Origin: Deinococcales bacterium
GTDB lineage: Bacteria > Deinococcota > Deinococci > Deinococcales > JAAFIG01
Reading direction: 5' to 3'
Assembly: GCA_013298185.1 (NCBI GenBank)
Contig: JAAFJQ010000001.1
Coordinates: 26,272-85,761 of the forward strand
DNA length: 59,490 nucleotides
The notes under the pieces were generated by a model, which was not told the origin of the DNA, ran no database searches, and saw nothing but the letters and a program-made list of their open reading frames with translations. The translations under genes were made by a program, and so were the position numbers. Positions 2,137-47,704 of the stretch are shown piece by piece (the stretch's first letter is position 1; every line of letters begins with the position of its first letter).

Positions 2137-2147
2137 GGAAAGAAGAT

Positions 2148-2190
2148 TAAAGGTAAAAGGTCAAAAGGTAAAAGGTCAAAAGGTGAAAGA
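2148..2190. repeat. Tandem 7-8 nt repeat (A)AAAGGT(C), about 5.5 units, in the ispD-ispE spacer
   Basis: Read directly: taaaggt aaaaggt caaaaggt aaaaggt caaaaggt gaaaga. On the gene-sense strand it reads ACCTTTT(G) just 5' of the ispE start. Confidence 0.85.
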
Positions 2191-2258
2191 ACCACCACAA
2201 AACATCTTCTCGAGCCTCGAGCAACGCAGGTTTTGCTTTCCTCTTTCCATTTTCCTCT

Positions 2259-2903: not shown

Positions 2904-3002
2904 GGTTACTTTTAACTCAAAAAGCAAAGCCGAGTCAATTGATTCATTTCAAAATGTGCGCTCGAGATTGTTCTTTCTTTGAATTTCGTCTAAGCTCAGC
3001 CG

Positions 3003-3422: not shown

Positions 3423-3427
3423 TTGTT

Positions 3428-3505
3428 AAGTACAGTGTCAACTAAGTGCGGAGACTATTTTCCGCTTCGCTCCAAAGAGTCTCCGCACTCATCGACACTG
3501 TACTT
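3428..3505. repeat. Long hairpin element A (12 bp + 11 bp perfect stems separated by an internal loop)
   Basis: AAGTACAGTGTC/GACACTGTACTT and GTGCGGAGACT/AGTCTCCGCAC pair perfectly. The element lies in a convergent intergenic spacer. Confidence 0.75.
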
Positions 3506-3550
3506 TAGTCATACTCGCATAGCTCGCCAAAAATCTACGATTTTTGTTGA

Positions 3551-3640
3551 CAGTGTATTAAGTGCAGCGTTTCGTAGGTCCTTACATTCTGCTTCCCAGA
3601 ATTGTCGGACAAAGAAGACGCTGCACTCTTTTCCACTCGC
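3551..3640. repeat. Degenerate second copy of hairpin element (B)
   Basis: It shares the 5' motif ACAGTGT-N-TAAGTGC and the 3' motif GCACTC-N5-CACT with element A. Its own stem is AGTGCAGCGT (3561-3570) paired with ACGCTGCACT (3618-3627). Confidence 0.5.
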
Positions 3641-3641
3641 A

Positions 3642-3689
3642 CGCCTCCCCACGCATTGCGGGGTCTAACCCCGTAAGCGCGGGGTGGCG
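3642..3689. other. Extended GC-rich hairpin C
   Basis: The outer stem pairs CGCCTCCCCACGC with GCGCGGGGTGGCG (2 mismatches). The inner stem is TTGCGGGG-tctaa-CCCCGTAA. Confidence 0.6.
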
Positions 3690-3806
3690 ATGCTCGGAAG
3701 TCATAAAGACTTCTGAAACAAAGCATTGAGTGCTAAACGCATTTTTTTAGGTTGTTTCAATCAGACTCGAGGCTCGAGCTGTTGGCAGGGGGGTTTAGCT
3801 GAACCC

Positions 3807-4616
3807 TTACGGTTGGGGTTTCCTTTGACGTATTCTCGGGTCGAGCTGTTGACGTAAACTTTCACTGATGCCAGTGATGCACAGCACCAATATCATGATC
3901 AATGCTCCGGGCAGCAAACTCAGCCACCAAATACCAGAAAAAAGGTAGCTGTAGCCTCTTGAAACCATTGCACCTAGGCTTGGGGTGTCAACACCAACAC
4001 CAACGCCTAGAAAAGATAAACTCGCCTCGAGCAGCACATTTTGTGGGAAGTCCAAGCTGATTTGCAGTAAAATTCCACTACCAATGTTGGGTAGCACATG
4101 GCGCAGGATTCGCCACTGGTTCGCACCTAGGGCTTTTGCTGATAGCACATACTCGAGTTCTCGTTGCACCAGAACAGTGGCTCGGGTGTACCGCGCAAAG
4201 CCAGCCCAACCAAAAACGCCAATCACCACGATTAAATTCAGCAACCCCGATCCAAGAAAAGTCAGGCTGACCAGTGCCAGTAGTACATTGGGCAGTGCCA
4301 TTTGAACTTCGGTGGCTCGCATGATGACTTGCTCGAGCCAACCACCGCGCAAACCTGCCAATAAGCCAAGTGGTACGCCAATCAAGGCAGACACCAGACT
4401 GCACACCATACCAACCAACAAGGATGTGCCTAAACCGTGTAACAGCAATGCAAACAGGTTGCGTCCAAGTTCATCTGTGCCAAGTGGGGTTGCCAGCGCC
4501 TGAAATGGTGGGCGTAGCGTCTCGAGCAGATTTTGGGCGTTGGGATTGGGGTACAGCACTGGCGCGAGTAGCGCCAAGCCCATCAAGCAAAGCAGCACCG
4601 CAACCTTTCTAGCCAT
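3807..4616 (-). CDS. ABC transporter permease, DppC/OppC family
   Basis: 269 aa, multi-TM, with a binding-protein-dependent transport inner-membrane component pattern. It overlaps the upstream permease by 8 nt. Confidence 0.85.
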   Translation of the reverse strand: MARKVAVLLCLMGLALLAPVLYPNPNAQNLLETLRPPFQALATPLGTDELGRNLFALLLHGLGTSLLVGMVCSLVSALIGVPLGLLAGLRGGWLEQVIMRATEVQMALPNVLLALVSLTFLGSGLLNLIVVIGVFGWAGFARYTRATVLVQRELEYVLSAKALGANQWRILRHVLPNIGSGILLQISLDFPQNVLLEASLSFLGVGVGVDTPSLGAMVSRGYSYLFSGIWWLSLLPGALIMILVLCITGISESLRQQLDPRIRQRKPQP

Positions 4617-5529
4617 AACGCACTCGAGGGTCTATCAGGAGGTATGCCACATCGGTCAGTAAATTGATGCTGGCGTAAAAAAAGGCACTGAGCAGAACAA
4701 AACTCAAAATCACAGGGGTGTCCAAACGGGTCAGGGCATCGAGTGCGACACGGTTCATTCCGGGGTAAGCGAACAAACTTTCGGTAATCACTGCGCCTGA
4801 TAACAAGCCCGCGAATTGCAAACCCAGCACCGTTACAAATGGCACAAGGGCATTGCGAAGCGCGTGGTGGTACACAATCTGGCGCTCGAGCATACCTTTG
4901 GCTCGAGCCGTGCAAATAAAGTCTTGGCTTAAAACCTCGAGTAAATACAGGCGCAGCAGTTGGGTGTAGACCGCTGCTCGAGGCAGGGCTAAAGTCAGAC
5001 TTGGTAGGATCAAATGCCAGATCGTGCCGCTTCCTTGGGATGGCAGTAGGCGCCATTGAACAGCAAAAACGTAGATCAGCAGCATCCCAATCCAAAAGGT
5101 TGGGGCGCTTAAGATCATGCTGCTCAGGTTGAGGATGATGGTGTCCCACCTCGAGCCAACCCGTGTGGCGCTCCAAACCCCAAGCGGAATGCCGATCAGC
5201 AGTGCTAAACCAAGTCCAAGGCTGACCAATTGCAAGGTGGCTGGTAAGCGCTCGAGCAGGATTTGCATGGCTGGTCGGGCGCTGTACATTGAGTTGCCTA
5301 AGTTGCCTTGGCTGGCGTTGAATAAAAAAAGCAAGTACTGTCCAAAGAACGGTTGTTCAAGACCATAAGCTCGGCGCAGGGTTTCCCGCTCGAGTGGGGT
5401 GGCATCTTCGGCGCTTAGAAAACCAATTGGGTCACCTGTGAGCTGCAAGCCAACAAAGGTCAGACTGACCACCAGCCACAGCACAAACAGGCTTTGTATG
5501 ACTCGAGAGAACAAAAATGCCACAAACAA
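4609..5529 (-). CDS. ABC transporter permease, DppB/OppB family
   Basis: 306 aa. The N-terminus VIQSLFVLWLVVSLTFVGLQLTGDP is typical of DppB/OppB. Confidence 0.85.
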   Translation of the reverse strand: MFVAFLFSRVIQSLFVLWLVVSLTFVGLQLTGDPIGFLSAEDATPLERETLRRAYGLEQPFFGQYLLFLFNASQGNLGNSMYSARPAMQILLERLPATLQLVSLGLGLALLIGIPLGVWSATRVGSRWDTIILNLSSMILSAPTFWIGMLLIYVFAVQWRLLPSQGSGTIWHLILPSLTLALPRAAVYTQLLRLYLLEVLSQDFICTARAKGMLERQIVYHHALRNALVPFVTVLGLQFAGLLSGAVITESLFAYPGMNRVALDALTRLDTPVILSFVLLSAFFYASINLLTDVAYLLIDPRVRYG

Positions 5530-5778
5530 AAGTGTAACAAGGAATCAACCAACCACGGTCAGCTCGAGGTGAGTGGTCAGTACACATTGACCTTATTCAA
5601 TCTTTGTTCATAAAGAACCAGAATGCAAGTTCGAGAATTTTTCTCATATAATGCTTATTTTGTATAACCTTCACATTTAAATTATGCTACAATGAACGTA
5701 ATAGAGAGCGAAGCTACAAAATTATTTGGAGTTGCATTGCACTTCGCTGGTCAAGCTCTATGGAGGTATAAGGAAACC

Positions 5779-6798
5779 ATGAAACTCACCATCCAAGAAG
5801 TCGCCGAAAAAGCTGGTGTAGGCGTAGGTACAGTTTCACGGGTTCTCAATAACCACAAATCAGTGCGCCCTGAAACCCGTGAACGGGTGGTAAGCGCCAT
5901 GCAGGAACTTGGCTTTATCCCCAACCCACATGCACGGCGCGTGGCAGGTGGTAAAAGCTACACTGTCAGCATTATTTTGCAAGTTGTCGGCACCGAATTT
6001 TATATTCGATTGCTTTCGGGCTTAGAAAAAACCCTCGAGACACACCGCTACGACAGCGCTCTGTTCCCCCTGATTGGACGCGAGCGTCTCGAGCGTTACC
6101 TCAACTCGAGTACCTTGGCATACCAATCCGACGGCATTGTCATGGCAAGCCATAACCTCGGCGATTTATATCCTGATGGTCGCTTACCCACCCGTCAACC
6201 CGTGGTCATCGTAGACGGCACCAGTCAACACTACGACAGCATTTACTTGGACAACGAACTCGGCGGACGGCTCGCAGCTCGAGCCTTGGCAGCCTTAGAT
6301 GGCGATATTTACGCCATCAGCGTACACCAAGCCCTCGACGAAGTTTTTAAGAACACTGTTTTCCAAGACCGAATGCGCGGCTTTAAGAACGCCCTCGAGA
6401 CAGCAGGACGCCCTATTGCCGAAGAGAACATTCAAACCATCACCTTCGATCTGAACAACGCCCGTCACGCCGCTCAAACCATCCTCGAGAACGCGACTTT
6501 CCCCGTCAACATCTTTGCGGCAGCCGACCTTGTTGCCATGGCAGTCTTGGATGAAGCTCGCGCTCGCAACCTCGAGATAGGACGCGATGTTCGCGTGATT
6601 GGCTTTGACGACCACCCATGGGCAAGAGAACGCGGTTTAACCACCCTGCACCAACCCGTCGAAGCGATGGGAGCAACCGCCGCCGAGTTGTTAATCGAAC
6701 GCCTAAGCGGTTACGAAGGCGCACCTCGGCAAGTCCGCTTTGAACCAAGGCTGATCGAGCGCCAAAGCACCATGCACACCGACACCGACGAGCAGTAG
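5779..6798 (+). CDS. LacI-family transcriptional regulator
   Basis: HTH MKLTIQEVAEKAGVGVGTVSRVLNN followed by a periplasmic-binding-like domain. The ATG at 5779 is preceded by GGAGG/AAGGA; the track start at 5692 is probably too far upstream. Confidence 0.85.
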   Translation: MKLTIQEVAEKAGVGVGTVSRVLNNHKSVRPETRERVVSAMQELGFIPNPHARRVAGGKSYTVSIILQVVGTEFYIRLLSGLEKTLETHRYDSALFPLIGRERLERYLNSSTLAYQSDGIVMASHNLGDLYPDGRLPTRQPVVIVDGTSQHYDSIYLDNELGGRLAARALAALDGDIYAISVHQALDEVFKNTVFQDRMRGFKNALETAGRPIAEENIQTITFDLNNARHAAQTILENATFPVNIFAAADLVAMAVLDEARARNLEIGRDVRVIGFDDHPWARERGLTTLHQPVEAMGATAAELLIERLSGYEGAPRQVRFEPRLIERQSTMHTDTDEQ

Positions 6799-7983: not shown

Positions 7984-8073
7984 GGAGGGTTGGCCGAGCG
8001 GTTGAAGGCGACAGTCTTGAAAACTGTAGTAGGGGGAACTCTACCGGGGGTTCGAATCCCTCACCCTCCGCCA
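7984..8073 (+). tRNA. tRNA-Ser (anticodon UGA), CCA encoded
   Basis: Acceptor GGAGGGT/ACCCTCC, anticodon stem ACAGT/ACTGT with loop CT-TGA-AA, a long variable arm, and T-loop GGTTCGAATCC. Confidence 0.9.
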
Positions 8074-8096
8074 AAGCCATCACCCAAGAACCATCT

Positions 8097-8188
8097 GGAG
8101 GGATGGGTGAGCGGTTGAAACCAACGGTTTGCTAAACCGTCGTACGAGGAAACTTGTACCGAGAGTTCGAATCTCTCTCCCTCCGCCA
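8097..8188 (+). tRNA. tRNA-Ser (anticodon GCU), CCA encoded
   Basis: Acceptor GGAGGGA/TCCCTCC, anticodon stem ACGGT/ACCGT with loop TT-GCT-AA, a long variable arm, and T-loop AGTTCGAATCT. Confidence 0.9.
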
Positions 8189-8228
8189 GTAGCACCCCGT
8201 TATTGCAAGCGGGTCGAAATCCAAAAAT

Positions 8229-8305
<77 letters not shown>

Positions 8306-14184: not shown

Positions 14185-14317
14185 CCATAACAAGTCTATC
14201 AGGTTGTGGGGGTAAAGCCAAAATGATTGAACTTTTTTGTGGCATTCACGTATTTACTCTCGAGGATGCCTGATGCTGCTGACGTTTCAAACATTTCACC
14301 TGCCGAGTGTGGTTAGA

Positions 14318-14902
14318 ATGCCACAAATGGCTTCGCCTCTGTCTGATGCTGATTTAATTGCGCGTTTTGCTTGGCGCGATGAAGAAGCGTTATCCGAAAT
14401 TTATGATCGTTACTCGAGCAGTTTGTTTGGTTTGGCGTTGCGGGTTTCGGGTTCAAGGGAACGGGCTGAAGAAATTGTTCAAGATACCTTGATGAAGCTC
14501 TGGCGTAACCCAAGGTTGTTTGATCCGAGTAAAGCTGCGCTGTCTACTTTTTTAATGACCTTGGTTCGTAATGCCGCGATTGATACCCTTCGCCGTGAGC
14601 GCTACACCGTCCCACTCGAGGATGAAGAAGGCGAATCCCTGCCACTGGCAAGTAACTACGCCTCGCCGCTCGAGCAAGCAGAACTAGCACAGACGGCAGT
14701 GCGGGTGCGTTCAGCCATGGCAGATTTATCCGAAGCGCACCGCCAAACCGTCGAACTAGCGTATTTCAAGGGCGCGTCTCGAGAAGAAATTGCGGCTGCC
14801 ATGAATGTGCCTGTTGGCACGGTCAAAAGCCGTTTGAAATACGCGCTGGACAAGCTGCGCGGCACGTTGTCCGATGTTTGGGGTGAACCAATCCATGACT
14901 GA
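14318..14902 (+). CDS. ECF (group 4) sigma-70 family RNA polymerase sigma factor
   Basis: Region 2 (ALSEIYDRYSSSLFGLALRV..AEEIVQDTLMKLW) and region 4 (LSEAHRQTVELAYFKGASREEIAAAMNVPVGTVKSRL). The start is probably the ATG at 14318 or 14327. Confidence 0.85.
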   Translation: MPQMASPLSDADLIARFAWRDEEALSEIYDRYSSSLFGLALRVSGSRERAEEIVQDTLMKLWRNPRLFDPSKAALSTFLMTLVRNAAIDTLRRERYTVPLEDEEGESLPLASNYASPLEQAELAQTAVRVRSAMADLSEAHRQTVELAYFKGASREEIAAAMNVPVGTVKSRLKYALDKLRGTLSDVWGEPIHD

Positions 14903-16139
14903 ACATAGTGAACTTTTGCCATTTGTGATTCTTGGGCTTGCCACCCCTGAAGAAGTGCGTCAGGTCAAAGCTGCCCTCGAGACGGATGTGGCGTTAAGGC
15001 GTGAATATGCTGAACTCGAGTTGGTACTGACGGGCTTGGGTGCGACTGAAGCAGTTGAACCTCCTGCAAGTTTGAAGCAAAAAATTTTGGCAGCTTCTCG
15101 AGGTTCTGACCAATCCGAGTCTCGAGCCACCAATGAAGCCGAGTCTCGAGTTCGTCCCGCTCCAACTTCAAAGCGAACTGCTCCTCGCCCCATGGCTCGA
15201 GTTCTGCCTTGGGTGATGGCTGGTTTGGCAACGGCGCTGACAGCCGTGGCGGTTTTTGTGGCATTCCCACAAAGCCAAATCAATGCCACCACCTTGGCAG
15301 CCACAAGCGACGGCAGCATCATTTATGCCAATTCTGGTGCAATGTCGCGCAGTACCCCCGCGATGTTGGTGCGTTCCAATGGTGCAAAAATTCCGGTGCA
15401 GTTTGTGGCGGATAAAGAATGCAAGTTCACGGCTGCTGTCTCGAGTGATGGTTTAACGTATTTGCTTGACCAAGCCAACAATACAGTTTTTATCATTGAG
15501 GAAAGCACAGGAAAAATGGTTGACCGCTGGCTTGTACCAGCCAATGCCACGGGCTTAGACGTGGTGGGTAATACCGTAGTGGTGCGCTCGAGTCAGGTGG
15601 CACTGATTTTTAGGCGCAACCAAAGTGGTGAAAAAAGCATGGTTGAAGCACGGCTCTCGAGCAGCAAGCCCAGTGCTTATGCCGAAGCTGCGGTGATTGA
15701 TGGCGAACGCCTGTACACCACCGATCAGACCTTGGGTGTGGTGCATGTCCTCGAGACTGCCACAGGCAAGGAAATCAAGCAATTTGAGATACCCGAAAAA
15801 CCTGTTTCGCTGGCTGTTAGAAATGGTTTGTGGGTCTTGGATGCAGCTGGGGTGCTACTGAAGCTCGAGCTAAGCACTGGTGCGGTTCTCGAGAAGATTG
15901 TTTTAGAAGGTACTCCGCAACTGCTGCGTTTAACCGATTTATATGCTTTTGTGGCAGACAAAGAAGGCTTTGTCTCGGTGGTTGATTTGCAAAAACAGCA
16001 AGTCACAGTCCGTAAGCGCTTACGAAATCCTGCTTTGGCGCTCTCAATGATGCCCGATGGTCATATCGCTATTGCGGTTGAAAAAAACGGAATTGTCGTG
16101 CTGGACAATAAACTCGAGATGGTCAAAAGCATCAATTGA
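14895..16139 (+). CDS. Membrane anti-sigma factor (RskA-like N-terminus) with an extracytoplasmic beta-propeller-like domain
   Basis: The ATG at 14895 overlaps the sigma stop by 8 nt. There is one TM (VLPWVMAGLATALTAVAVFVAF). The C-terminal 280 aa carry repeated beta-strand blocks (..VFIIEESTGK.., ..VHVLETATGKE.., ..VSVVDLQKQQ..). Confidence 0.6.
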   Translation: MTEHSELLPFVILGLATPEEVRQVKAALETDVALRREYAELELVLTGLGATEAVEPPASLKQKILAASRGSDQSESRATNEAESRVRPAPTSKRTAPRPMARVLPWVMAGLATALTAVAVFVAFPQSQINATTLAATSDGSIIYANSGAMSRSTPAMLVRSNGAKIPVQFVADKECKFTAAVSSDGLTYLLDQANNTVFIIEESTGKMVDRWLVPANATGLDVVGNTVVVRSSQVALIFRRNQSGEKSMVEARLSSSKPSAYAEAAVIDGERLYTTDQTLGVVHVLETATGKEIKQFEIPEKPVSLAVRNGLWVLDAAGVLLKLELSTGAVLEKIVLEGTPQLLRLTDLYAFVADKEGFVSVVDLQKQQVTVRKRLRNPALALSMMPDGHIAIAVEKNGIVVLDNKLEMVKSIN

Positions 16140-16637: not shown

Positions 16638-18464
16638 TTGGTCTGTCGTGTTTTGCCCGTAGGGGCGCAGTGCGCTGCGCCCCTACGGTTTTGCCTTCGT
16701 CCTTCGTCCTTCATCCTTCGTCCCCATTCTCAGGAGGTCATTACGGAAAAAGTTCATGGTCATACAAGCGGCTTAAAACCCAGCGTCCTTAAACTCTTAT
16801 CTAATTTGTATCGCCGCAAAGTGCCGCCTAATACTGTGGTCACACCAGAATTGGCTCGCAGTTTGACTGAGCTTTCCTTAGAAATCAACCGCGAGGTCTG
16901 TGTCCTGATTGACCGTCGCGGTCGGGTGGTCACGGTTTCGGTGGGCGATGCCAGCAAAACCGAATTCCCGAACCTCGAGCGTGGACGCGAAGCAGAATCC
17001 CGCCTGCGTGGTTTGTGGTTGGTTCATGCTCACCCGAAACCCGCGCCGCTTTCAAAATCGGATTTGTCTACCTTATTCTTGAATCGCTTGGATGCAATGG
17101 TGGCACTCGAGGTGGCTGCGGGTGGTCTGCCCGGCGCGGCGCACTTGGCGCACCTGACCCCACCAAACGCTAAGCTCGAGGAAGAAGATTGGCGCATTTA
17201 CCCGCCGCAATCGGTGCAGAGCCTCGAGCAGTGGGATATTGCCGCCAACACCCGTGCGCTCGAGGAGGAATTTGTCCGCACTCAAAAAGTGCGGGAAACC
17301 AAGCGCTCGAGCGCCGAACGCGCCATTTTGGTGCAGTTGGATCGCGGTACGGGCATCAATGCCGAAGCTGCGCTCGAGGAACTGTCTGAGTTGGCTCGCA
17401 CGGCTGGTGCGGTGGTGGTGTATAAGGAACTGACCTTTCGCCGTTTTGCCAAAGCTGACACGCTGATTGGACGCGGTAAACTCGAGGAGCTGACCAGTAG
17501 GGCATACCACCTCGATGCTGATGTGCTGATTTTTGGCGAGGAACTGAGTCCCGCGCAAGCCAGGGAAATCGAGGAAGCCACCAACCTCAAAATCATTGAC
17601 CGCACCCAGTTAATCCTTGATATTTTTGCCCAACATGCCAGTGGTCCAGAATCCAAACTCCAAGTTGAATTGGCGCAGTTGCAGTACATGAAGCCGCGCC
17701 TCCTTGGACAAGGCACAAAACTCTCCAAAATCGGTGGTGGAGCGGCTGGCTCGAGTGGCGCGATTGGCACTCGCGGACCTGGTGAAACCAAACTCGAGCT
17801 TGACCGAAGGCGGATTAACGACCGCATCAGCTTTCTCGAGAATACCCTGCGTGATCTCAATAAACGCCAACAAGAACGCCGTAAAAACCGTCTGCGAAGC
17901 GGAATTCCCAATGTGGCAATCGTTGGGTACACCAACGCTGGCAAAAGTACACTGCTGAATTCCCTGACCCATTCCAATGTCTTATCAGAAAATAAGCTCT
18001 TTGCCACCCTTGCCCCAACCTCGAGACGCGGTTATTTGCCCGATTACGGCGAAATTGTTTTCACCGACACCGTGGGTTTTATCCGCGAATTGCCAACCGA
18101 CTTAAAACGCGCTTTTCGCAGTACACTCGAGGAGTTACACGATGTGGATGTGCTGATGCACGTCCTTGATGCCAGCGCCGAGGATGCCTTAGAGCGCTTC
18201 AAAGCCGTCGAGGGGATTTTAAGCGAACTCGAGTTAAACAACATTCCGCATTTGCTGGTCTTAAATAAGAGTGACAGTGCCGACCCATTTGATCTTGACA
18301 TGCTCGAGGAACGCCTTGGCGGCATTCGGGTTTCTGCTCAGCAAAAACTGGGTCTGCCAGAACTGAAACACGCCATCCTCAGTGCGGTGAAGGATCATCG
18401 CGCTCGGCTCGAGGAGATTTTCTTAAAAGAACAAGCTGCTAAGCTGGAATTTCAGACCGCTTAA
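16638..18464 (+). CDS. hflX: GTPase HflX, long form with an N-terminal extension; true start unresolved
   Basis: G1 GYTNAGKSTLLN, G3 DTVGF, G4 NKSD. The N-terminal HflX domain starts at ..SGLKPSVLKLLSNLYRRKVPP. The first ~34 codons of the track ORF are translated palindrome/heptamer repeat and are unlikely to be coding. Confidence 0.85.
   Translation: MVCRVLPVGAQCAAPLRFCLRPSSFILRPHSQEVITEKVHGHTSGLKPSVLKLLSNLYRRKVPPNTVVTPELARSLTELSLEINREVCVLIDRRGRVVTVSVGDASKTEFPNLERGREAESRLRGLWLVHAHPKPAPLSKSDLSTLFLNRLDAMVALEVAAGGLPGAAHLAHLTPPNAKLEEEDWRIYPPQSVQSLEQWDIAANTRALEEEFVRTQKVRETKRSSAERAILVQLDRGTGINAEAALEELSELARTAGAVVVYKELTFRRFAKADTLIGRGKLEELTSRAYHLDADVLIFGEELSPAQAREIEEATNLKIIDRTQLILDIFAQHASGPESKLQVELAQLQYMKPRLLGQGTKLSKIGGGAAGSSGAIGTRGPGETKLELDRRRINDRISFLENTLRDLNKRQQERRKNRLRSGIPNVAIVGYTNAGKSTLLNSLTHSNVLSENKLFATLAPTSRRGYLPDYGEIVFTDTVGFIRELPTDLKRAFRSTLEELHDVDVLMHVLDASAEDALERFKAVEGILSELELNNIPHLLVLNKSDSADPFDLDMLEERLGGIRVSAQQKLGLPELKHAILSAVKDHRARLEEIFLKEQAAKLEFQTA
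16657..16692. repeat. 14-bp perfect palindrome CCGTAGGGGCGCAG/CTGCGCCCCTACGG followed by a T-run
   Basis: Read directly. It resembles a dispersed GC-rich palindrome type I recall from Chloroflexota/cyanobacterial genomes, translated spuriously as VGAQCAAPL. Confidence 0.6.
16693..16724. repeat. Tandem heptamer CCTTCGT x4
   Basis: gccttcgt ccttcgt ccttcat ccttcgt cccc, immediately 5' of the hflX AGGAGG. Confidence 0.85.
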
Positions 18465-39095: not shown

Positions 39096-40181
39096 TCACG
39101 CAGAATTCCACAGTTTCAACAGTGCTTGCTCGGTCAGCATTTCTTCAGGCACGCGATGTCCCATTTCGAGGATGTGTTGCACTTCATGGCGAACTTCAAG
39201 TGCTAGCCACTCGAGTGCCAAAGGGTTTGGTTTGAGATCTTTGCCAGGGAATCCATCAGGTGAATTGATGCTGGGTTCGCACAATGCGTCCAGCATCAGA
39301 CGATGAATACTGCTGGCAGGAGTGACAGAGGGCAAGCCATGTTTTTGCGCTTTGATGCTGGCGCTCTGCGGAATGGAAATGCCTTTCCAATCCAAATCGC
39401 CAACGTATTCGATGCGCTCGAGCTTGCTACCCATATCATTTTCTATATTGGCGAAATCGCGGACAGAATCTACGAAGCCACCACCATACCCAAAGGCGAT
39501 GATGCCGTAAGGTGATTGCTTTACTCCAATCAGGCGCAAGGTTTGCAGTGCTAAGTTGTACGGGCTTTTGTTCTCAAAAACAATGGCAACAGGTCGTCCG
39601 CCAACCTTTTGATATGTGATTGGCAAGATGTCAGAACTGACATTTAAATCTTCAATCCCTAGTTTTCCAATGCCAAATAAAGTCTTTCGTTCAAACAATG
39701 TAGCCAATTTTTTTTCTTGTTTTGTCAGTTGAATCGAACGGTGTTTTGGCGAAACCCGTGTCTCGAACCAATGCTCGAGAAACCCTTGTTGAATTTTCAA
39801 AAGAAAGGCGCTGTCCTCGTCTGAAAGACTGTCCATGTCCGCAACCCATTCGAGTTTGGGATGCCAATAATGCTGTTTCCACCACAGGTCTTTTGGGGCG
39901 CTAGGCAGCTGCACTTGTGTGACTTGTGTTGGCAGAGGCGGGTTGCCATGATCCCAGCGCTTGCCAGTGGTGCTAGGCAAACGAATGACATTGGCTCGTT
40001 CAGCCATTCGCAATGCCTCGAGCAGCCAATCACGGCGTACCGAAATCCCTGGTCGGTGGGCGAAGACTTCCATGAATACTTGCCGCAAAACTTTGAGTGG
40101 AATGGTGGTGTTTTTCAATTGCAGGTCACGCAATAGTTGTGTAAATTCAGCAAAGTATTTTGGGTCAACGTCAACCGTCAT
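39096..40181 (-). CDS. jetD: JetD/MksG-like Toprim-domain nuclease subunit of a Wadjet-like system
   Basis: 361 aa. The C-terminal half has a Toprim-type Glu (AIVFENKSPY) and DxD (IEYVGDLDWKGISI). It is the last gene of a 4-gene coupled operon that includes an SMC-like ATPase, joined by an ATGA overlap. Confidence 0.7.
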   Translation of the reverse strand: MTVDVDPKYFAEFTQLLRDLQLKNTTIPLKVLRQVFMEVFAHRPGISVRRDWLLEALRMAERANVIRLPSTTGKRWDHGNPPLPTQVTQVQLPSAPKDLWWKQHYWHPKLEWVADMDSLSDEDSAFLLKIQQGFLEHWFETRVSPKHRSIQLTKQEKKLATLFERKTLFGIGKLGIEDLNVSSDILPITYQKVGGRPVAIVFENKSPYNLALQTLRLIGVKQSPYGIIAFGYGGGFVDSVRDFANIENDMGSKLERIEYVGDLDWKGISIPQSASIKAQKHGLPSVTPASSIHRLMLDALCEPSINSPDGFPGKDLKPNPLALEWLALEVRHEVQHILEMGHRVPEEMLTEQALLKLWNSA

Positions 40182-43100
40182 GTGTTTTCTCCTTGTGTTG
40201 GATCGGGTCGGATCATCCTTGCTGCCTCCAACAGATGATCGTTCCCACTGCGACGTTCGTTCCGTAAACGCACGATGTTTGGCATGGTACGCAATGCCTC
40301 GAGGTCATTGACACCCGTGGCGTAAATCAGTTGGATGTTCATGGTTTGGGCAGCCGCACGTTGTAACTCCAGAAATTTGGCACGCGAGACCGTCCCGACA
40401 GGATTATCGAGCAGCAGTGTACTCGAGGAATTTTTCTGCCCTCGGGCTTTGACCCGTTGCTGCGCCAAAGCGCAGTACAACAACACCGCACTGGTCAGGC
40501 GTTCGCCACCGCTTTCTTTTGCCATGCTGGTGATGGGTATGTATCTGGCTTCAGCATCGGTATCTGGGAACAGCACTTCGACCCGAAAAGGTTGTGCAAG
40601 TTTACGCACGGCACGTTGTATCAATTTCAGACCATCTAAGCGCAAGCCTTCTCGAGTGATGTCGTCAATCAGTGTGCCAATGCGTTCACGCTGGTCTCGA
40701 GGTGAATCGGTAACTGACATTTGAATTCGCAAAAAACGATGTCCGGCTAGGCTACCGCTGGCGGGTACATGATCAAGTTTGGAATGTCGTTGTAAATCTG
40801 CCAGCATCTTGATGCCAACTTCTGCAACTTGTGAAGTCTCTTCGATGATTAAATTGCGATGGTGTTCGCTTTCGACCAAAGCGTTGCGAATGGTTTGCGC
40901 TCGTACTTCGAGGTCGTGCAACAGTGTGTCAATCTCCGTTTCGAGGTTTTCGGGTTGCCATGCACTCAAAGGTGTTACAAAGCCGAAGTTAAACCCAATT
41001 AGGCACTGCATATACTGCTGATGAATTGCAGTGCGTTTCTCGAGTAAATCTGTACGATCACGGGCTGCTTTTTTGAGGGTTTTTTCCAAATCACGGTAAA
41101 GGCGTTCAAGTTCTTCATCCAAAGGAGCAACCCATGTAGATTGATCTGGTTGGAGTACATCTGAAAGAGCTTCTTGGTGATCCTCAAGTAAAACATTTAG
41201 ACTGCTTTGTAAACCCTTGAGTTTGTCTTGCTGGGATTGTAAGTGCTGTTTGAGTTCAGTGTATTGCTGTATCTGAGCTTGGGCTGTTTGCGCTTGGGCT
41301 TGAGCTGTGGTTATGGCTGTCTGAGCTTTGCTTGCCAATTGGTTCAGTGCATCAACCTCAAGCTCCAACTCATGTGCTGGTAATTTCAGATCAACCACAT
41401 GATTGCGCTCATGCTGACTTAATTCATTTTCGGCAATTTGCAATTGCACATGGCTCGAGCCGAGCTGAGTTTGCAGGGCAAACCCGTGTTGCACGGCTTC
41501 CTCGAGTTTTGTGGAAATACTTGATTGGCTGTGGTCAGCAATCGTTCCGAGTGCAGCGCGAATCTCGTGTTCTTCAATGTTTTGGTCTCTTTCATACTCG
41601 TAGTGCTTGGAGGCTTTGTCTCGAGCATTCTGGGCATTTTGCAGTTCAATCTGCAATTTGTTGCCTTGGTTTTTTGTTTCTAAGTGTTCACTTAGTCGTT
41701 TGTAGGTATCGCGTAACTGATCCACATGTCCAGCCACAGGTTCGGGTGGCTCGCCTTCGAGGTATTTGAGGTTTTTGCGTTCACGCTCGTCATCTTCAGC
41801 CGCTCGAGTTAAGCCTTGTGCCGCATCTTCGAGGGTTCTCACTTGGTTTACCAAGGTTTCCTTGGTTGCTTCAAAACGTTTAGCGGCTTCAGATTGATCT
41901 TTTGCTCGTTGCATTTGTTCCACCAGAGCCTGTTGCCGTTTCTGTTCGGCTTCATCCGTGCCGTGCTGTTCGATGTGCGACTCGAGTCGCCGTACATGGT
42001 CTTTTGCGGTGTTGAATGCCTGTTGCAAGTGGTCGCGTTGCTGCTCGAGGCTTTGGATGCGATTTGCTACAACTTGTCGCTTTAGCGTTAGCTCACCCAG
42101 GCGCTCAGTACAGGCTTTGTGGTGTTTTTGTACCATCAGCAATTCGGTCTCTTGAGTGGTAAACCAGGCTTCTGGGTATTGTTCCAGAAAGCGTTCGAGC
42201 AGATCGGCAGTATCACGCCATTGCAGTGATTCTTGTTCGATGGTTTCATGCCGCAAACGTTCTCGTCGCGCTTGTATCTCGCGTTCTTGGTGTTCACGTT
42301 CGGCGGCTTCGGGGTCAAAATGTGCATCGCTGCTTGGTCCGACCACAAAGCGTTGAGCGGCTCGTGCAGCAAACACAGCTTCATCTGCATTGGCGTTGAA
42401 CGCATCGGTGCGACGTGCAATCACCACTGGTGAATCCAAGCGGTCAGCCATATTTTCAAGGGCGACTTTGGCTTTCTCAAAATGTGCATCACGGATCAAG
42501 ACACCCTGCATCAGTTCTGGATGACGAGCGATGAAGGCTCGAGCCTGATCGCGTGGAACAACTTGGCTCAGGTGTGTCCAACCCGCGCTGGCTTGCACTT
42601 CATGGCTTTCAAGCACCCGCAGCACGGTTCTTAAATCGCGTGTTGGTGGCAAGCGTTTATGGGTTTCGAGGTGTTGCAACGCATCTGCGTGGTTGATCAA
42701 ACTCGCCTTGATTTCGCGCATCCGACTTTCGGCGTTGGATCTGTGGTCGCGCAGTTTGCCAAGCGTAATGTTGTTCAGCACCGACGCATCAATCAACTCA
42801 AATTCTAAGGCTCGAGCCAGCATCGGATGCTGCTCGAGTGTTTCACGCGCAGCTCGAGCAAGACTGAGTTGCTGCGTCAAGTTGGTTTCCTGAGTTGCTA
42901 CCTCAAGTGTTTGTTGTTTGGTATCGTTGAATTGCTGCTCGAGTAAGGACTGTTCAGAGCGTTGTTGTACCATTTCACCGCTGATGGCTTCGATTTCAAA
43001 TTCATGCTGGGCAACCGCACCTTGCCATCGTTCGAGCGCAACCAAAATACCCTCTGTTGGCTCGAGGGTATCCGTGGCTTGCAGCTTACTTTGAGAGGCA

Positions 43101-44530
43101 TTGAACTGTTCAAGTTGCTTTGTGAGTGCTTCGGCATTCACATTGGCACGCACAGCCTGTTCACGGGCTTGAATTGCTGCTGCTTGGGTTTGATTCGCCT
43201 CGAGTTGGATCTTTTCTGCTTGCTTTGATTTTTCAACAGCAAGCAATCGGGTTGTTTGAGCGCGAGCGCCTAAGGCTTCAGACAATTGACGGGCAGCAAC
43301 CTGCACAGCTTTGATGTCAGGCGCAAGTTTTCGTTGTTGTTGTGTGAACAGTTCGTTTAATTCTTGAATGCTTGCATGGCAACGTTGAAGCTCGACAAAA
43401 GGTATGGCTGCTTTCCAGATCAAACGGAGCCGCTCTGCCTTTTTCTGATCAACCGTTAAGGCATCGTGCAATGCCTTGCATTGACGTTGCCGTTGTACCA
43501 GCGCATGGCGTTGCAGCATCAGCATTCTGGCGTGCTGCTGTTGCTCGCTGGTCTGAGCCGTCAACAAGTCTTGTCGCGCCTGCGACTCGAGGCTCGAGGT
43601 CAGTGAAAGCCGTTGGGTATTGGACAGCACACGGCTGATGATGTGTGTTGCCAACGCTTGCAAATGGATTTTCAGCTCCCCCAGCAAGCGCCGATTCTCC
43701 AAGCGCTGAAATGCCAAGGCACGCATGGGTTGTAGCGTCAGGATCAGTCGGTCAATCAACTCGAGGCTGGGTTGGAATTCCTCAAGCCGTTCGCGCAACC
43801 CAGTCTGAAATTGACTCAAATTGCGTGCAAGTGCCACTCCGCGTTCGCTTGGCACGGTCAATTCCAAAAAGAAATCCACAAATTGATCCATGTCCTTGAA
43901 ACGAAACAACTCATCTGCGCTGCCCTCACGGGTGTTCATGCGTTGCTGGTACAAAAACAATTCTGAGTCAATTCGCGCTTCACGCTCGAGGGCTTGTCGC
44001 CATTCTTGATGGTTTTCAAACTCATGCCCGTTCAACTGCGGATTGGTACTGAGGAGGTTCTGCCAAGCCTGCTTAAAACCACGCAACGTCAGGCGCTTGC
44101 CTGACTCATCCCAAAACGGAAAGTCGGTGAATTGCAGTAAGGGTGCTTGCGCCTGTGCCGAAAAAAAGACACGCTCGAGCTTATCGTTTCGCCATTGGTA
44201 AAAACCACCTGTCCAGAACCACTGCTCGGGTTGATGTGGCGCTGTATCCAGTTGCCATTGCGCCAACACCACAGCTTGATCATCGGGCAAGACATAATCC
44301 TCGAGGGTGCGATCACCCTGTTCGGCACGCGTCCCAAGGAAGCTGCGCCGATTTGGGTTTAACAGCGAAAAGAATAAAGTCAAAAGTGAGGATTTACCAC
44401 CACCATTGCGTAGCCACAAAATCGAATCCAAAGCTTGTCCATCAGGGTCGCACAACTCGAGTCGCAAGTCCTGCATCCGAGCATTGCTGTGTCCAATGTT
44501 GAGAAAATACAAGCGTGACAATTTCGGCAT
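40178..44530 (-). CDS. jetC: SMC/MukB-like ATPase (JetC/MksB-like), unusually long
   Basis: 1450 aa. The N-terminal P-loop is WLRNGGGKSSLLTLFFSLL. More than 1000 aa of Q/E/L-rich coiled coil follow. The C-terminus has the signature KESGGERLT and Walker B STLLLDNP. Confidence 0.8.
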   Translation of the reverse strand: MPKLSRLYFLNIGHSNARMQDLRLELCDPDGQALDSILWLRNGGGKSSLLTLFFSLLNPNRRSFLGTRAEQGDRTLEDYVLPDDQAVVLAQWQLDTAPHQPEQWFWTGGFYQWRNDKLERVFFSAQAQAPLLQFTDFPFWDESGKRLTLRGFKQAWQNLLSTNPQLNGHEFENHQEWRQALEREARIDSELFLYQQRMNTREGSADELFRFKDMDQFVDFFLELTVPSERGVALARNLSQFQTGLRERLEEFQPSLELIDRLILTLQPMRALAFQRLENRRLLGELKIHLQALATHIISRVLSNTQRLSLTSSLESQARQDLLTAQTSEQQQHARMLMLQRHALVQRQRQCKALHDALTVDQKKAERLRLIWKAAIPFVELQRCHASIQELNELFTQQQRKLAPDIKAVQVAARQLSEALGARAQTTRLLAVEKSKQAEKIQLEANQTQAAAIQAREQAVRANVNAEALTKQLEQFNASQSKLQATDTLEPTEGILVALERWQGAVAQHEFEIEAISGEMVQQRSEQSLLEQQFNDTKQQTLEVATQETNLTQQLSLARAARETLEQHPMLARALEFELIDASVLNNITLGKLRDHRSNAESRMREIKASLINHADALQHLETHKRLPPTRDLRTVLRVLESHEVQASAGWTHLSQVVPRDQARAFIARHPELMQGVLIRDAHFEKAKVALENMADRLDSPVVIARRTDAFNANADEAVFAARAAQRFVVGPSSDAHFDPEAAEREHQEREIQARRERLRHETIEQESLQWRDTADLLERFLEQYPEAWFTTQETELLMVQKHHKACTERLGELTLKRQVVANRIQSLEQQRDHLQQAFNTAKDHVRRLESHIEQHGTDEAEQKRQQALVEQMQRAKDQSEAAKRFEATKETLVNQVRTLEDAAQGLTRAAEDDERERKNLKYLEGEPPEPVAGHVDQLRDTYKRLSEHLETKNQGNKLQIELQNAQNARDKASKHYEYERDQNIEEHEIRAALGTIADHSQSSISTKLEEAVQHGFALQTQLGSSHVQLQIAENELSQHERNHVVDLKLPAHELELEVDALNQLASKAQTAITTAQAQAQTAQAQIQQYTELKQHLQSQQDKLKGLQSSLNVLLEDHQEALSDVLQPDQSTWVAPLDEELERLYRDLEKTLKKAARDRTDLLEKRTAIHQQYMQCLIGFNFGFVTPLSAWQPENLETEIDTLLHDLEVRAQTIRNALVESEHHRNLIIEETSQVAEVGIKMLADLQRHSKLDHVPASGSLAGHRFLRIQMSVTDSPRDQRERIGTLIDDITREGLRLDGLKLIQRAVRKLAQPFRVEVLFPDTDAEARYIPITSMAKESGGERLTSAVLLYCALAQQRVKARGQKNSSSTLLLDNPVGTVSRAKFLELQRAAAQTMNIQLIYATGVNDLEALRTMPNIVRLRNERRSGNDHLLEAARMIRPDPTQGENT

Positions 44531-45268
44531 TCATACCACCTCGGATGGCTCTGAACGCAACGCTTTTTGAATGGCGGCGTACATGCGAGTAGCAGCAAAC
44601 TCTTGAACCAATAATGTATAACGAAACAATGGTATGTACTGACTGCCATTACGCTTAAAACAACGCTGCTTCACCAGATACTCGAGCGCATATTCAATCA
44701 TGCGCCGTGTGGTGTTGCTGGCTGCTCGATGGTCGCTGGTGCTGCGAGCGGCGGCGCGATTTTTGTAGACCCGCCAAGCCTCATAGATGCCTGCCGTGCT
44801 GGATTCTGGATCGGGTTGCCCTCGAGCGGCTTGCTCGAGCTTATCAACCAATTGTCGCAACGTCAGCTCGATTTCATCCACACTGATTGGGTTGCGTACC
44901 AGCATCGGATCAGCCAGTAGGTCTGTGGCTTTGGGATACACCGTTGCGGCAATCGCTACTTGAATCAGCCCATCAAGCAGGCGTGCATCTTCAGAAGCTG
45001 TACTGCCTAGACGATACTGCCCCACAGACACCGCAAAAACCGAATCTGGCAACGGCACAAGCACCAGACTTTGACCACGCCGCGCACCGCTCAATACGCT
45101 CAATCCCAAACCTGAAGCGATTGACGTGACCATTTCACGAAACTCATGTCGATCCAAATAACGCTCAAGCAGCGTAGCGTATTCTTCCGAACGGCTTGGA
45201 CTGCTCTCTGGTCGCAACGCCCATTGAATCAAACGAGCTGCATCAAAAGTGTCTTGGTTGGTATTCAC
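44531..45268 (-). CDS. jetB: JetB/MksE-position subunit (putative KITE protein); assignment by position and size
   Basis: 245 aa. The GTG start overlaps the upstream stop (GTGA) and its TGA abuts the jetC ATG. I did not recognise DUF4194 motifs with confidence. Confidence 0.45.
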   Translation of the reverse strand: MNTNQDTFDAARLIQWALRPESSPSRSEEYATLLERYLDRHEFREMVTSIASGLGLSVLSGARRGQSLVLVPLPDSVFAVSVGQYRLGSTASEDARLLDGLIQVAIAATVYPKATDLLADPMLVRNPISVDEIELTLRQLVDKLEQAARGQPDPESSTAGIYEAWRVYKNRAAARSTSDHRAASNTTRRMIEYALEYLVKQRCFKRNGSQYIPLFRYTLLVQEFAATRMYAAIQKALRSEPSEVV

Positions 45269-46971
45269 TGCGCTTCCTCCATCATATCAACATTGACGGC
45301 ATCACTGAACAATTCCAACTCGAGGTCATCACCAAAAAACCCCCAAGCCTGCCAGCTTTGTTCGACTCGCCGTACTTGCAAGCCTGTGGTTTGATCGGTC
45401 TCAAAGGCTTGCAATGTTCGTAAACCCAAATACTCGAGAACCGCCTCAGGTTCGCCCGCTTGCCCAGCCCGATCAATCAAGGTTGACAATAACGCTGGAA
45501 CTTGTTGCAGATAATCTTGTGCAGCTAACTGAGTGGTTTCTGAAAAACGTACCCTATCTAAACTGGCTTCTTGCCAGTTTTGTTTGTGGGTTGGCACACT
45601 CAAACTGAACTCAATGCGGCGTGGACGCAACAAACCAGTAATCAAATCAGCAAGCGACAACATACTGGGGGCATTCACCCCCAAAAGCGTTGGCATCGCC
45701 TCCGAAAGGGCTTTGATCGCATCAGCTTTGGTCGCCATCATCAGTGGCTCAAGCACTCCTGCAAATAAGTCGGGTAAATGCATCAGACGACGTGGTATGA
45801 ACGCCTGACGCTCCTGCTCTCGAAAAAACACACTGTGCGCCGTCATTAACACTTCGTGCAGGCGAAGGTGTCGATCAAAACAATCATCCATCAGATCGGC
45901 AATCAACGCCACCCTTTGTGCCTCGCGGCTTCCTTGTTCCAAATGCTCGAGTCGTTCGCGGGCTGAACTGATAATCTGTCGTTCAATCCGCAAACGCCCA
46001 GTGATATGTTCACGGGCTTCACGTAAATCTTGTGGTACAGCCTTGAGCCAATCTACACTCGAGATGTCACGTCGCGTTTCACGTAACAATCGTTCAATTT
46101 TTTCCTGCAATTGCTGAGAACGGAATTTTGCATCTCTGGCAGCCTGTACTGCTTCGTCAAAACGTCCTCGATCCAGTTGAGATTGCACCACAGCTTCAAT
46201 GGCTGCTTGTTCATCTTCGATTTCGAGATTCAGCGCTCCTAAAAAAAGATTGGCTGCCTCTTTGGAAAGCCGCAACACTGTACGCTCATCTGAAGCAAAG
46301 TGTTCTTCAATTAAACGTATCTCAAAGAACCGTTTCTTAGGAGGTGAATCGTTTAAATCCGTGTACTCGAGCTTGAAGGGTCGGCGAGCATCAGCATCGT
46401 TTCGCAATCGCCCCAACAAGCGCTCAAGGTACTGACGCTGATCGGTTGCTTTTGGTCTCGCATCTACCAGGTTATCCAGCCGATGCAACAATGGCTCAAG
46501 CGAGCGTATCACAGTGTTTTCGTCCACATCAGCGCCCAGACCAGTGGATTCAACGATTCGATCTAGCACCCGCATCGCCAAGGCAACAGAATCGTAATGT
46601 TGCGTGCTGATGTCTTCACGCAACATATCCCAACGCCGCAAATCAAGGATTGGTTCAGCGTGGAGTAACACGCGCAACCTTTTGGTCAGTTCCAGCGACC
46701 AGTCCAGAGCGCTCGGCTGGGCAGATGCACGAATCTGACGAAATAATCGCTCTTTTGCTTCAGGCGATGGCGGCTTTACTTTCTCCTCGAGAACCAAAGC
46801 TGCCCAAACTTCAGCATTATTGGCATACATACGACCACATGATTCGCAAGCTGAAACATGTCGCATGTACTGCTCTCGAGTCTCAGCATCAAAATGTCCT
46901 GAAGCCAGCGCCAACAGGGTAAATTCGTCCAAATGCTGGATGGTCATGGACGCATCAGAATGCAGAGTCAT
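45265..46971 (-). CDS. jetA: JetA/MksF-position subunit (putative kleisin) with an N-terminal zf-HC2-like motif; assignment by position
   Basis: 568 aa and first gene of the operon. The N-terminal 60 aa contain H38-x3-C42-x2-C45 (RHVSACESC) in an anti-sigma-like context. The remainder is helical and R/E/L-rich, and I saw no DUF3375 or DUF2397 motif. Confidence 0.45.
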   Translation of the reverse strand: MTLHSDASMTIQHLDEFTLLALASGHFDAETREQYMRHVSACESCGRMYANNAEVWAALVLEEKVKPPSPEAKERLFRQIRASAQPSALDWSLELTKRLRVLLHAEPILDLRRWDMLREDISTQHYDSVALAMRVLDRIVESTGLGADVDENTVIRSLEPLLHRLDNLVDARPKATDQRQYLERLLGRLRNDADARRPFKLEYTDLNDSPPKKRFFEIRLIEEHFASDERTVLRLSKEAANLFLGALNLEIEDEQAAIEAVVQSQLDRGRFDEAVQAARDAKFRSQQLQEKIERLLRETRRDISSVDWLKAVPQDLREAREHITGRLRIERQIISSARERLEHLEQGSREAQRVALIADLMDDCFDRHLRLHEVLMTAHSVFFREQERQAFIPRRLMHLPDLFAGVLEPLMMATKADAIKALSEAMPTLLGVNAPSMLSLADLITGLLRPRRIEFSLSVPTHKQNWQEASLDRVRFSETTQLAAQDYLQQVPALLSTLIDRAGQAGEPEAVLEYLGLRTLQAFETDQTTGLQVRRVEQSWQAWGFFGDDLELELFSDAVNVDMMEEAQ

Positions 46972-47048
46972 CGAAGTCCTTTTTTGGCTGCATCACCTGA
47001 CGCAACAATTGGGTGATCTTAACAAGTCGGCGCTTGACCAGACTCAAT

Positions 47049-47471
47049 TCAGTACCCATAACCAAGCTCTTGGGCTTCTTTAGAGAGTTTTCCCATGATC
47101 TCGAGACTTTTTTTGCGCTGCGCTTCTTTGTACCGTAGCGCATCCTCGAGCAGTACCCGCCGATGTGTGCCAACCATATGAAATGGCAATTTGCCTTCTT
47201 GCAAAAGTTGTACCACATAAGGACGGGAAACATTGAGCAATTCTGCTGTTTCAGCCGTGGTTAAATCGGATTCCTTACTTAGCACACTAACCTGTTTGCC
47301 ATTGGCAACTTGTGTGACCACCTCGAGCATGATTTGCAACACGTTTTTTGGCAAGGTGATTTGTTCAGAACCGATTTGCAATTGGGTGCTATATCCTTTG
47401 TGCTGTGCGAATAAACGACTTAGTTCTCGAGCTGCTTTGATGTCATTGGGTTTTAGGGTTTGAGAGTTCAT
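47049..47471 (-). CDS. Excisionase-type (HTH_17/MerR-like) DNA-binding protein, antitoxin-like
   Basis: LTTAETAELLNVSRPYVVQLLQEGKLPFHMVGTHRRVLLEDALRYK is the helix-turn-helix of the excisionase family. The ATG at 47471 is the likely start. It ends 77 nt upstream of jetA on the same strand. Confidence 0.7.
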   Translation of the reverse strand: MNSQTLKPNDIKAARELSRLFAQHKGYSTQLQIGSEQITLPKNVLQIMLEVVTQVANGKQVSVLSKESDLTTAETAELLNVSRPYVVQLLQEGKLPFHMVGTHRRVLLEDALRYKEAQRKKSLEIMGKLSKEAQELGYGY

Positions 47472-47594
47472 GCTTAGAGTGTAGTAAATAAGTGTAATAA
47501 ATGCAATAAACAAAACAGATTTTCAAGGCTCAATGTAGAGTACCTGATGCTTTTAGGCTCAAGGCTGCCAAACGCATTGTGGAAATCACAACGC

Positions 47595-47704
47595 CCCACC
47601 CATTCGGGTAGGGCGATTTTCCTATCCAATCAGGTGAGGTTGCAACTACTCAAAACCTTCAAAATACCTGCATCTCGAGAAGACTCGAGCAGGAGGAAAA
47701 CCCC
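47595..47704 (+). promoter_or_regulatory. Conserved structured leader, copy A (upstream of NTF2-like gene 1)
   Basis: It is about 91% identical to 48696-48804 right up to the ATG, while the downstream CDSs are highly diverged. Predicted hairpins are CCCACCC/GGGTAGGG, GAGGTT/AACCTT and CTCGAG-aaga-CTCGAG, adjacent to the AGGAGG RBS. Confidence 0.6.

Follow-up and report, generated by a model that had tools for sequence, protein, structure and literature searches.

A real and intact type III Wadjet operon lies on the minus strand of a 59,490-nucleotide stretch of contig JAAFJQ010000001.1 from a Deinococcales bacterium (the whole of the DNA analyzed, referred to below as the window). The operon belongs to an already catalogued type; what is new is the fusion of its kleisin subunit, JetA, with an anti-sigma domain, the ancestral sigma factor partner of this fusion and the loss of that partner. 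The overall reading, which we hold with high confidence, is that of a type III Wadjet operon whose JetA carries a zinc-binding anti-sigma (ZAS) domain restricted to one lineage, and which ancestrally included a coupled extracytoplasmic function (ECF) sigma factor gene that is truncated in the window. A domain of this kind fused to a Wadjet kleisin has not been described before for such systems, and a literature search found no paper that connects anti-sigma factors with Wadjet or with kleisins of any kind. Type III is reportedly one of the types distinguished by Doron et al. 2018, whose classification PADLOC implements, and its prototype is said to be that of Bacillus thuringiensis. The systems of types II and III are largely uncharacterized (10.1101/2025.03.10.642339).

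The operon consists of four joined open reading frames (ORFs) of 568, 245, 1450 and 361 aa, all encoded on the minus strand:

45265..46971, minus strand: jetA3, kleisin-like subunit, 568 aa (PADLOC JetA3 and MukF structural matches)
44531..45268, minus strand: jetB3, presumed KITE subunit, 245 aa, GTG start (PADLOC JetB3)
40178..44530, minus strand: jetC3, SMC-like ATPase, 1450 aa (PADLOC JetC3 and motifs)
39096..40181, minus strand: jetD3, presumed Toprim nuclease, 361 aa (PADLOC JetD3 and E/DxD)

The junctions read GTGA (gene 1/2), TGAATG (gene 2/3) and ATGA (gene 3/4) on the coding strand. The ORF coordinates and the junction sequences bear out a first-pass annotation, made from the letters and a list of ORFs, which had described four translationally coupled minus-strand genes.

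Assignment to type III is carried by PADLOC, in which the JetA3 model PDLC00567 covers aa 93-533 of gene 1 (E=9.6e-87), the JetB3 model PDLC00571 aa 27-225 of gene 2 (E=3.7e-7), the JetC3 model PDLC00579 aa 3-1427 of gene 3 (E=1.4e-147) and the JetD3 model PDLC00594 aa 22-354 of gene 4 (E=5e-52). Every Wadjet model in the match lists of the four proteins belongs to type III and no other Wadjet type appears; PADLOC carries several type III models, and strong matches were obtained to a subset of them only. None of the four window proteins reached the threshold of a Pfam family; the type I domains DUF3375, DUF4194, DUF3322 and JetD_C gave no match on them at E<=0.01, and the type II domains DUF2397 and DUF2398 had no Pfam match on JetA or JetB; the only type II domain with any link is DUF2399, weakly, through JetD family members. 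The first-pass annotation had called the operon a Wadjet candidate, which the profile and PADLOC searches that it had proposed bear out, and had recognized neither type I (DUF3375/DUF4194) nor type II (DUF2397/DUF2398) signatures in it, in agreement with those searches. It had weighed types I and II only, and its suggestion of an undescribed subtype falls because all four proteins match type III models.

The neighborhood survey that it had also proposed found genes 1 and 2 together with genes 3 and 4, in the same A-B-C-D order, in about 25 loci of Chloroflexota, Myxococcota, Desulfobacterota, Planctomycetota, Acidobacteriota, Nitrospirota and other phyla. The JetA family comprises 723 representatives at 50% clustering; the closest named homologues of the window protein are from Kouleothrix and Anaerolineae. 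A distant copy of the operon is held by a Rhodococcus plasmid, where the fourth gene is named Wadjet JetD domain protein in RefSeq. In another locus, that of the JetA homologue P0019, a gene for a 1980-aa DEAD/MZB helicase lies beside the Wadjet genes.

The JetA3 model begins at residue 93 of JetA, and the residues that precede it (1-91) are conserved in seven proteins only (P0001-P0007, the window protein and those of six relatives). They appear to form a domain of the ZAS type, as judged from their predicted helical fold and from zinc ligands that fit the pattern H/C-x(23-26)-H-x3-C-x2-C:

46699..46971, minus strand: predicted zinc-binding anti-sigma domain (ZAS/zf-HC2 type), JetA aa 1-91, from profile and ligands
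46933-46935, minus strand: ligand H13, invariant in the 7 proteins
46837-46860, minus strand: ligands H38-x3-C42-x2-C45, invariant in the 7 proteins

A profile built from the seven N-termini matched the anti-sigma factor ChrR (2Q1Z) over residues 5-76 with the zinc ligands in register (E=6.7e-5), followed by RslA (3HUG, E=1.6e-3) and RsiW (5WUQ, E=1.7e-3), with a weak match to DdvA (E=0.44). Five of the seven members match Pfam zf-HC2 (PF13490; best 2.4e-7), and the N-terminus of the window JetA by itself matches the NCBIfam antisigma model with E=1.6e-4, under the cut-off of that model. In the structural model of JetA four helices occupy residues 16-83, with a predicted local distance difference test score (pLDDT) that drops past residue 50. 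Among the seven proteins the domain is 17-52% identical, less than the core. The N-terminal extensions of other JetA3 representatives are low-complexity and do not have the HxxxCxxC motif. In the Kouleothrix locus (L004) a DDE transposase remnant (4071-4487) lies directly upstream of a jetA gene that begins exactly at the core.

Directly upstream of jetA, and overlapping its start, five of the six relatives (L001, L002, L003, L007 and L085) have an ECF-type sigma gene whose product of 179-197 aa matches Sigma70_r2 and r4_2, the overlap being of 20 nt in L003; in the sixth, L086, the corresponding sigma gene is split and degenerate. L003 also encodes a BrxL-like Lon ATPase (1-1005) upstream of the sigma gene. 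A further 75 JetA3 loci (27 from species-representative genomes and 48 from metagenomes) were scanned with hidden Markov models for the domain and for the sigma factor, and none of the 75 had the domain fused to JetA or a sigma gene next to jetA. An anti-sigma-like ORF located 3.4 kb upstream of jetA in locus L063 is taken as unrelated.

In the window the position of the sigma gene is occupied as follows, and a separate ECF sigma gene is found elsewhere:

46955..47053, minus strand: 3' remnant of an ECF sigma gene, ~33 codons, with a 17-nt overlap with the jetA start
47049..47471, minus strand: HTH_17 (helix-turn-helix, excisionase/MerR-like) gene, 140 aa (Pfam HTH_17 E=2.5e-10; PADLOC mad1-like HTH 4.5e-8)
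14237-14902, plus strand: separate ECF sigma gene, 221 aa, overlapping a gene for a 421-aa membrane anti-sigma-like protein (pair 14237-16139)

The remnant, which is read in another frame from the stop of the HTH_17 gene to a stop 17 nt inside jetA, aligns without gaps over 33 aa to the C-terminus of the L003 sigma factor (aa 154-187 of 189). Its BLOSUM62 score is 68, versus 23.7 +/- 3.9 (maximum 40) in 500 shuffles (z=11.4), and its overlap with jetA resembles the sigma/jetA overlap of L003. From this alignment and the similar overlap it follows that the ancestral operon had the order sigma, anti-sigma::jetA, jetB, jetC, jetD. Since the sigma gene is truncated in the window, the anti-sigma domain is either orphaned or serves a sigma factor encoded elsewhere. 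The sigma factor encoded at 14237-14902 was considered as the partner of JetA and rejected, its gene being overlapped by that of a membrane anti-sigma factor of its own; this pair is unrelated to the Wadjet locus.

The stop codon of the HTH_17 gene sits where the sigma remnant starts; this gene occupies the position of the sigma gene and is possibly co-transcribed with the jet genes. A hairpin resembling a terminator occurs upstream of it (47592-47615); a promoter and terminator scan gave counts at or under those expected from shuffled sequence. The HTH_17 protein is typical of excisionase-type antitoxins or regulators, and no toxin gene comes after it. On one side the jet operon is flanked by a LacI/ABC sugar transporter operon and a thioesterase gene, and on the other by SnoaL and cytochrome P460-like genes.

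The restriction of the fusion to one lineage is further indicated by a palindrome. CTCGAG is by far the commonest hexamer in the window (positions 1-59490), with 388 copies or 6.5 per kb, about 27 times the ~14.5 copies that a random hexamer would have; CAATTG, the palindrome next in number, has 36. The contigs that carry the anti-sigma::JetA fusion have a CTCGAG excess of 2.5-5.7 per kb, usually as their top hexamer and at a GC content of 45-64%, and this excess is not shared by the 75 other JetA3 loci. As the excess is common to all fusion contigs, the fusion variant is confined to one lineage. The pattern resembles a lineage-wide highly iterated palindrome of an uncultured Deinococcota relative; a literature search found no paper describing CTCGAG as an iterated palindrome. 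The HflX protein encoded in the window (16638-18464, plus strand) is 69% identical to proteins of Deinococcales metagenome-assembled genomes (MAGs) and 58-63% identical to those of Deinococcus species. One of the closest named relatives, at 79% identity, carries the name of a cyanobacterial MAG, Pleurocapsa sp. SU_196_0, whose contig is probably mis-binned; all other named relatives are from Deinococcales. HflX thus points to an uncultured relative of Deinococcota, and a Chloroflexota origin, which the Kouleothrix and Anaerolineae homologues of JetA had suggested at first, was rejected. The window also holds a cluster of three tRNA genes at 7984-8302 (plus strand).

Within the jet operon itself there are 39 CTCGAG sites (4.95 per kb), of which 26 are in frame as Leu-Glu codons. 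This matches the density of about 5 per kb given by the first-pass annotation, and it corresponds to the 17th percentile of equal-sized windows (range 3.8-9.0, median 6.5 per kb). The hint of a foreign origin that could be read from that low density is not sustained, the value being no outlier, and a recent horizontal transfer was rejected on this ground. As its density falls within the host range, the operon carries the palindrome signature of the host and does not look recently acquired.

JetA was modeled with AlphaFold2 (AF2) from 40 sequences, with a mean pLDDT of 78.5. In a Foldseek search of the PDB the ten best matches of this model were all MukF chains, the best being 9gm7_D (E=8.6e-3, probability 0.99); these matches are weak, with E-values of at least 8.6e-3 and TM-scores of 0.15-0.33. 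As a prediction, the model supports a kleisin, short of proof. The first-pass annotation had seen in gene 1 the position and size of a kleisin JetA; the kleisin part is favored by the JetA3 match and by MukF as the top structural match, with structural E-values that are weak, and the N-terminal extension and the gene directly upstream had been overlooked.

The layout of JetC is that of a structural maintenance of chromosomes (SMC)-like protein, with an N-terminal Walker A motif, long coiled coils to either side of a putative hinge and, near the C-terminus, a signature motif followed by Walker B:

44387-44407, minus strand: Walker A NGGGKSS (P-loop motif), aa 42-48
42161-42673, minus strand: putative hinge, a conserved central block at about aa 620-790, from family conservation
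40502-40513, minus strand: SGGE signature motif, aa 1340-1343
40400-40417, minus strand: Walker B motif LLLDNP, with LLLD at aa 1372-1375

In a profile search the PDB matches of JetC aa ~450-1200 were coiled-coil proteins only. The P-loop, the SGGE signature and Walker B are where the first-pass annotation had placed them; the residue after the Walker B Asp is Asn followed by Pro, not Glu. This position is the one mutated in the EQ mutants of SMC proteins. The triplet D1375-N1376-P1377 does not vary among 13 family members, and the plasmid homologues from Rhodococcus and Salmonella have it too; the Asn is thus a family-wide trait and not a decay of this copy. Lacking the catalytic Glu, JetC may have an unconventional ATP turnover, which makes the ATPase cycle of this branch of SMC-like proteins a question in its own right. 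In the Salmonella IncFIB plasmid pRM11065-2 (L035; NZ_CP022662.1, 98587-110889) the jetC-like gene is split into two ORFs, at 2000-4936 and 4906-6426 of the locus, with the same DNP Walker B; all genes of this locus are annotated as hypothetical.

JetD is the presumed Toprim nuclease, as suggested by two motifs:

39570-39575, minus strand: JetD E203-N204, invariant in the family
39390-39398, minus strand: JetD D262-L-D264, invariant in the family (G261-D262-L-D264)

In the AF2 model of JetD (pLDDT 92.5) E203 follows strand 198-202 and the DxD motif follows strand 256-260, so that E203 and D262/D264 are placed after beta strands, as in Toprim. Pfam DUF2399 is weakly matched by 42 of 43 JetD family members and JetD_C by 26 of the 43; moreover, the window JetD matches the Rhodococcus plasmid protein in BLASTP (6e-23), and that protein passes the Pfam JetD_C cut-off. 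The first-pass assignment of gene 4 to the Toprim type is upheld as to the invariant E/DxD motifs, and the Toprim fold was not recovered by Foldseek. JetB is the presumed KITE subunit on the basis of its position and model matches: jetB always lies between jetA and jetC and is 39-75% identical across loci, and among 18 family members scanned JetB3 models match eight (PDLC00573) and six (PDLC00571).

Several results weigh against the proposed reading. The jet operon does not lie in an obvious defense island. No sigma gene is adjacent to jetA in the window, where only the 33-codon remnant is present, and the N-terminus of the window JetA alone fails Pfam zf-HC2. JetC has Asn in place of the catalytic Glu after the Walker B Asp. 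The assignment of JetB is carried by a modest E-value (JetB3, 3.7e-7). When the JetD model was compared with the PDB by Foldseek, the matches were generic alpha/beta folds (best E=6.5e-3), with no structure of JetD, of topoisomerase VI or of another Toprim protein among them. In sequence searches of the PDB neither JetC nor JetD by itself nor the JetD profile had a match, the JetC profile gave coiled-coil noise only, and the JetB profile gave chance matches (E>=0.79). Finally, no type III Wadjet has been biochemically characterized, and the mechanism is borrowed from other types (10.1101/2025.03.10.642339).

Three other identities of the operon were considered. A Wadjet-like system outside types I-III, that is, a fourth subtype, would account for the failure of all four window proteins to reach Pfam thresholds, for PDB sequence and profile searches that ended without a match, for the DNP sequence of Walker B and for strong matches to only a subset of the PADLOC type III models, which are indicative of a divergent branch. 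However, type III models are the best PADLOC match of each protein, the E-values being strong for JetA, JetC and JetD, so that current software would give the operon the type III label; besides, the wider family is widespread (the 723 representatives mentioned above) and partly annotated as JetD in RefSeq. We judge a fourth subtype to be improbable. The resemblance of the JetA fold to MukF, a locus set among housekeeping and transport genes with no defense island, a CTCGAG content like that of the host genome, which speaks for an operon long resident there, and a nuclease that was not recovered by the JetD fold search would all be expected of a chromosome-organizing condensin of the MksBEF type, with the fourth protein as an accessory factor devoid of nuclease function. 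Such a condensin is quite improbable in view of a JetD that is strictly kept beside JetC, has the invariant Toprim-type E and DxD and is linked to the JetD_C family, and of an operon that in relatives is patchy across phyla and found on plasmids and beside BREX, DISARM-like or helicase genes, which is typical of defense. An operon for a DNA repair ATPase of the SbcC/Rad50/RecN type is suggested by a weak Pfam SbcC_Walker_B match on gene 3, but this match (17.1 bits) is under the 27-bit cut-off, no SbcD/Mre11 nuclease gene is present, and gene 3 matches JetC3 end to end (1e-147) in the company of JetA, JetB and JetD. The check on SbcC-type proteins contained in the first-pass annotation thus came out in favor of its Wadjet call, and a repair operon has next to no probability.

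As regards the JetA extension, it could be a zinc ribbon-like structural add-on, serving for example in kleisin dimerization, with an incidental sigma neighborhood, and perhaps a decaying relic in the window. Compatible with this are the absence of a sigma gene from the window and its degeneration in L086, the failure of the window N-terminus alone in zf-HC2, the drop in pLDDT past residue 50, and a domain identity (17-52%) lower than that of the core. On the other hand, the four zinc ligands and the ChrR spacing H-x25-H-x3-C-x2-C are invariant in the seven proteins down to 17% identity, and five of the six relatives have a sigma gene overlapping jetA, a neighbor that no JetA devoid of the domain was seen to have; this start/stop overlap is the classic arrangement of sigma and anti-sigma genes. 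A structural add-on is, for these reasons, an unlikely explanation, albeit one to be reckoned with, and an anti-sigma domain is preferred.

By analogy with types I and II, for which mechanistic background is available (bioRxiv 10.1101/2025.03.10.642339), the kleisin JetA would close JetC dimers, to which JetB would bind, and the assembly would load onto DNA and extrude loops. On a small DNA circle these motors would stall and switch conformation, and JetD, as a Toprim-type nuclease, would then cut the stalled DNA, leading to the destruction of plasmids; the jet operon would in this way restrict plasmids. What the sequences show is the structure and order of the genes, their family, the fused domain, the sigma genes of the relatives and the remnant; the restriction of plasmids, sigma binding and any signaling are inferred. 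In the fusion variant JetA would also sequester the co-encoded ECF sigma factor, tying transcription of the operon or of other genes to the amount or the state of the Wadjet complex. Binding of a sigma factor by the JetA domain is suggested by what is known of ZAS proteins and by the gene arrangement, from which we infer that the ancestral JetA kleisin most likely also sequestered the coupled sigma factor. A kleisin that holds a coupled sigma would impose at least a stoichiometric feedback on expression of the operon. The kleisin N-terminus, where the anti-sigma domain is located, would rearrange from the resting to the cleavage state; as it is the point at which two motor units dimerize, the release of the sigma might, speculatively, depend on the state of the complex. 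A bolder version, which we consider rather doubtful, is that of a Wadjet kleisin doubling as an anti-sigma factor in a complex that frees the sigma on engaging invading DNA or upon a change in zinc or redox conditions; the window would then represent a subsequent stage, after loss of the sigma and its replacement by an HTH regulator. If true, an SMC loop extruder would have a transcriptional output in addition to its nuclease output.

Type III Wadjet is catalogued and yet uncharacterized, and little is known about the regulation of Wadjet operons. The fusion and the coupled ECF sigma gene therefore offer a testable handle on how the expression of an SMC-based immune system is set, and they also bear on whether an SMC complex signals to transcription on meeting foreign DNA. 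If neither the anti-sigma nor the Walker B point holds, the locus is one more type III Wadjet.

Compared with the known type III systems, the window operon has the same four-gene order and sizes, with type III models matched by all four proteins, and shares a JetC organized as head, coiled coil, hinge, coiled coil and head as well as a JetD C-terminal domain of the JetD_C/DUF2399 type. It differs in belonging to a divergent branch, the window proteins falling short of Pfam DUF3584 and JetD_C, and in having a JetA with an N-terminal anti-sigma domain (in the seven proteins only) and an ancestral sigma gene upstream. With types I and II, whose representatives we take to be the JetABCD systems of Escherichia coli GF4-3 and Pseudomonas aeruginosa and MksBEFG of Corynebacterium glutamicum (type I) and the system of Neobacillus vireti (type II), it has in common the logic of an SMC sensor (kleisin, presumed KITE and SMC) coupled to a presumed Toprim nuclease, by which circular DNA would be cleaved once loops have been extruded, as well as the kleisin N-terminus, which in those types is where two motor units dimerize. 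The window proteins have no detectable similarity to the solved chains of these systems, the JetD model misses the solved JetD structures, and in the literature searched no anti-sigma domain is reported for either type. MukF chains of MukBEF are the ten best PDB matches of the JetA model, with weak E-values and low TM-scores; unlike the jet operon, MukBEF is without a JetD partner and acts on the chromosome.

The ZAS factors ChrR, RslA, RsiW and RsrA resemble the JetA N-terminus in their ligand pattern, in the helical domain some 80 aa long and, as regards the relatives, in an overlapping ECF sigma gene immediately upstream. In these factors the output is a membrane or sensor domain, whereas in the jet loci it is the kleisin of an SMC complex, and the sigma gene of the window is a remnant. 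A precedent for the control of defense genes by such pairs is found in Myxococcus xanthus, where DdvS/DdvA, an ECF sigma factor and its anti-sigma factor, govern a CBASS-CRISPR island (PMC11506125). Both cases, as predicted for the jet loci, have in common an ECF sigma factor that is held by a zinc-bound helical anti-sigma domain and regulates an anti-invader system (PMC11506125); DdvA, however, is a transmembrane protein of its own with a CHAT domain, whereas here the domain is part of JetA, a structural component of the defense complex itself.

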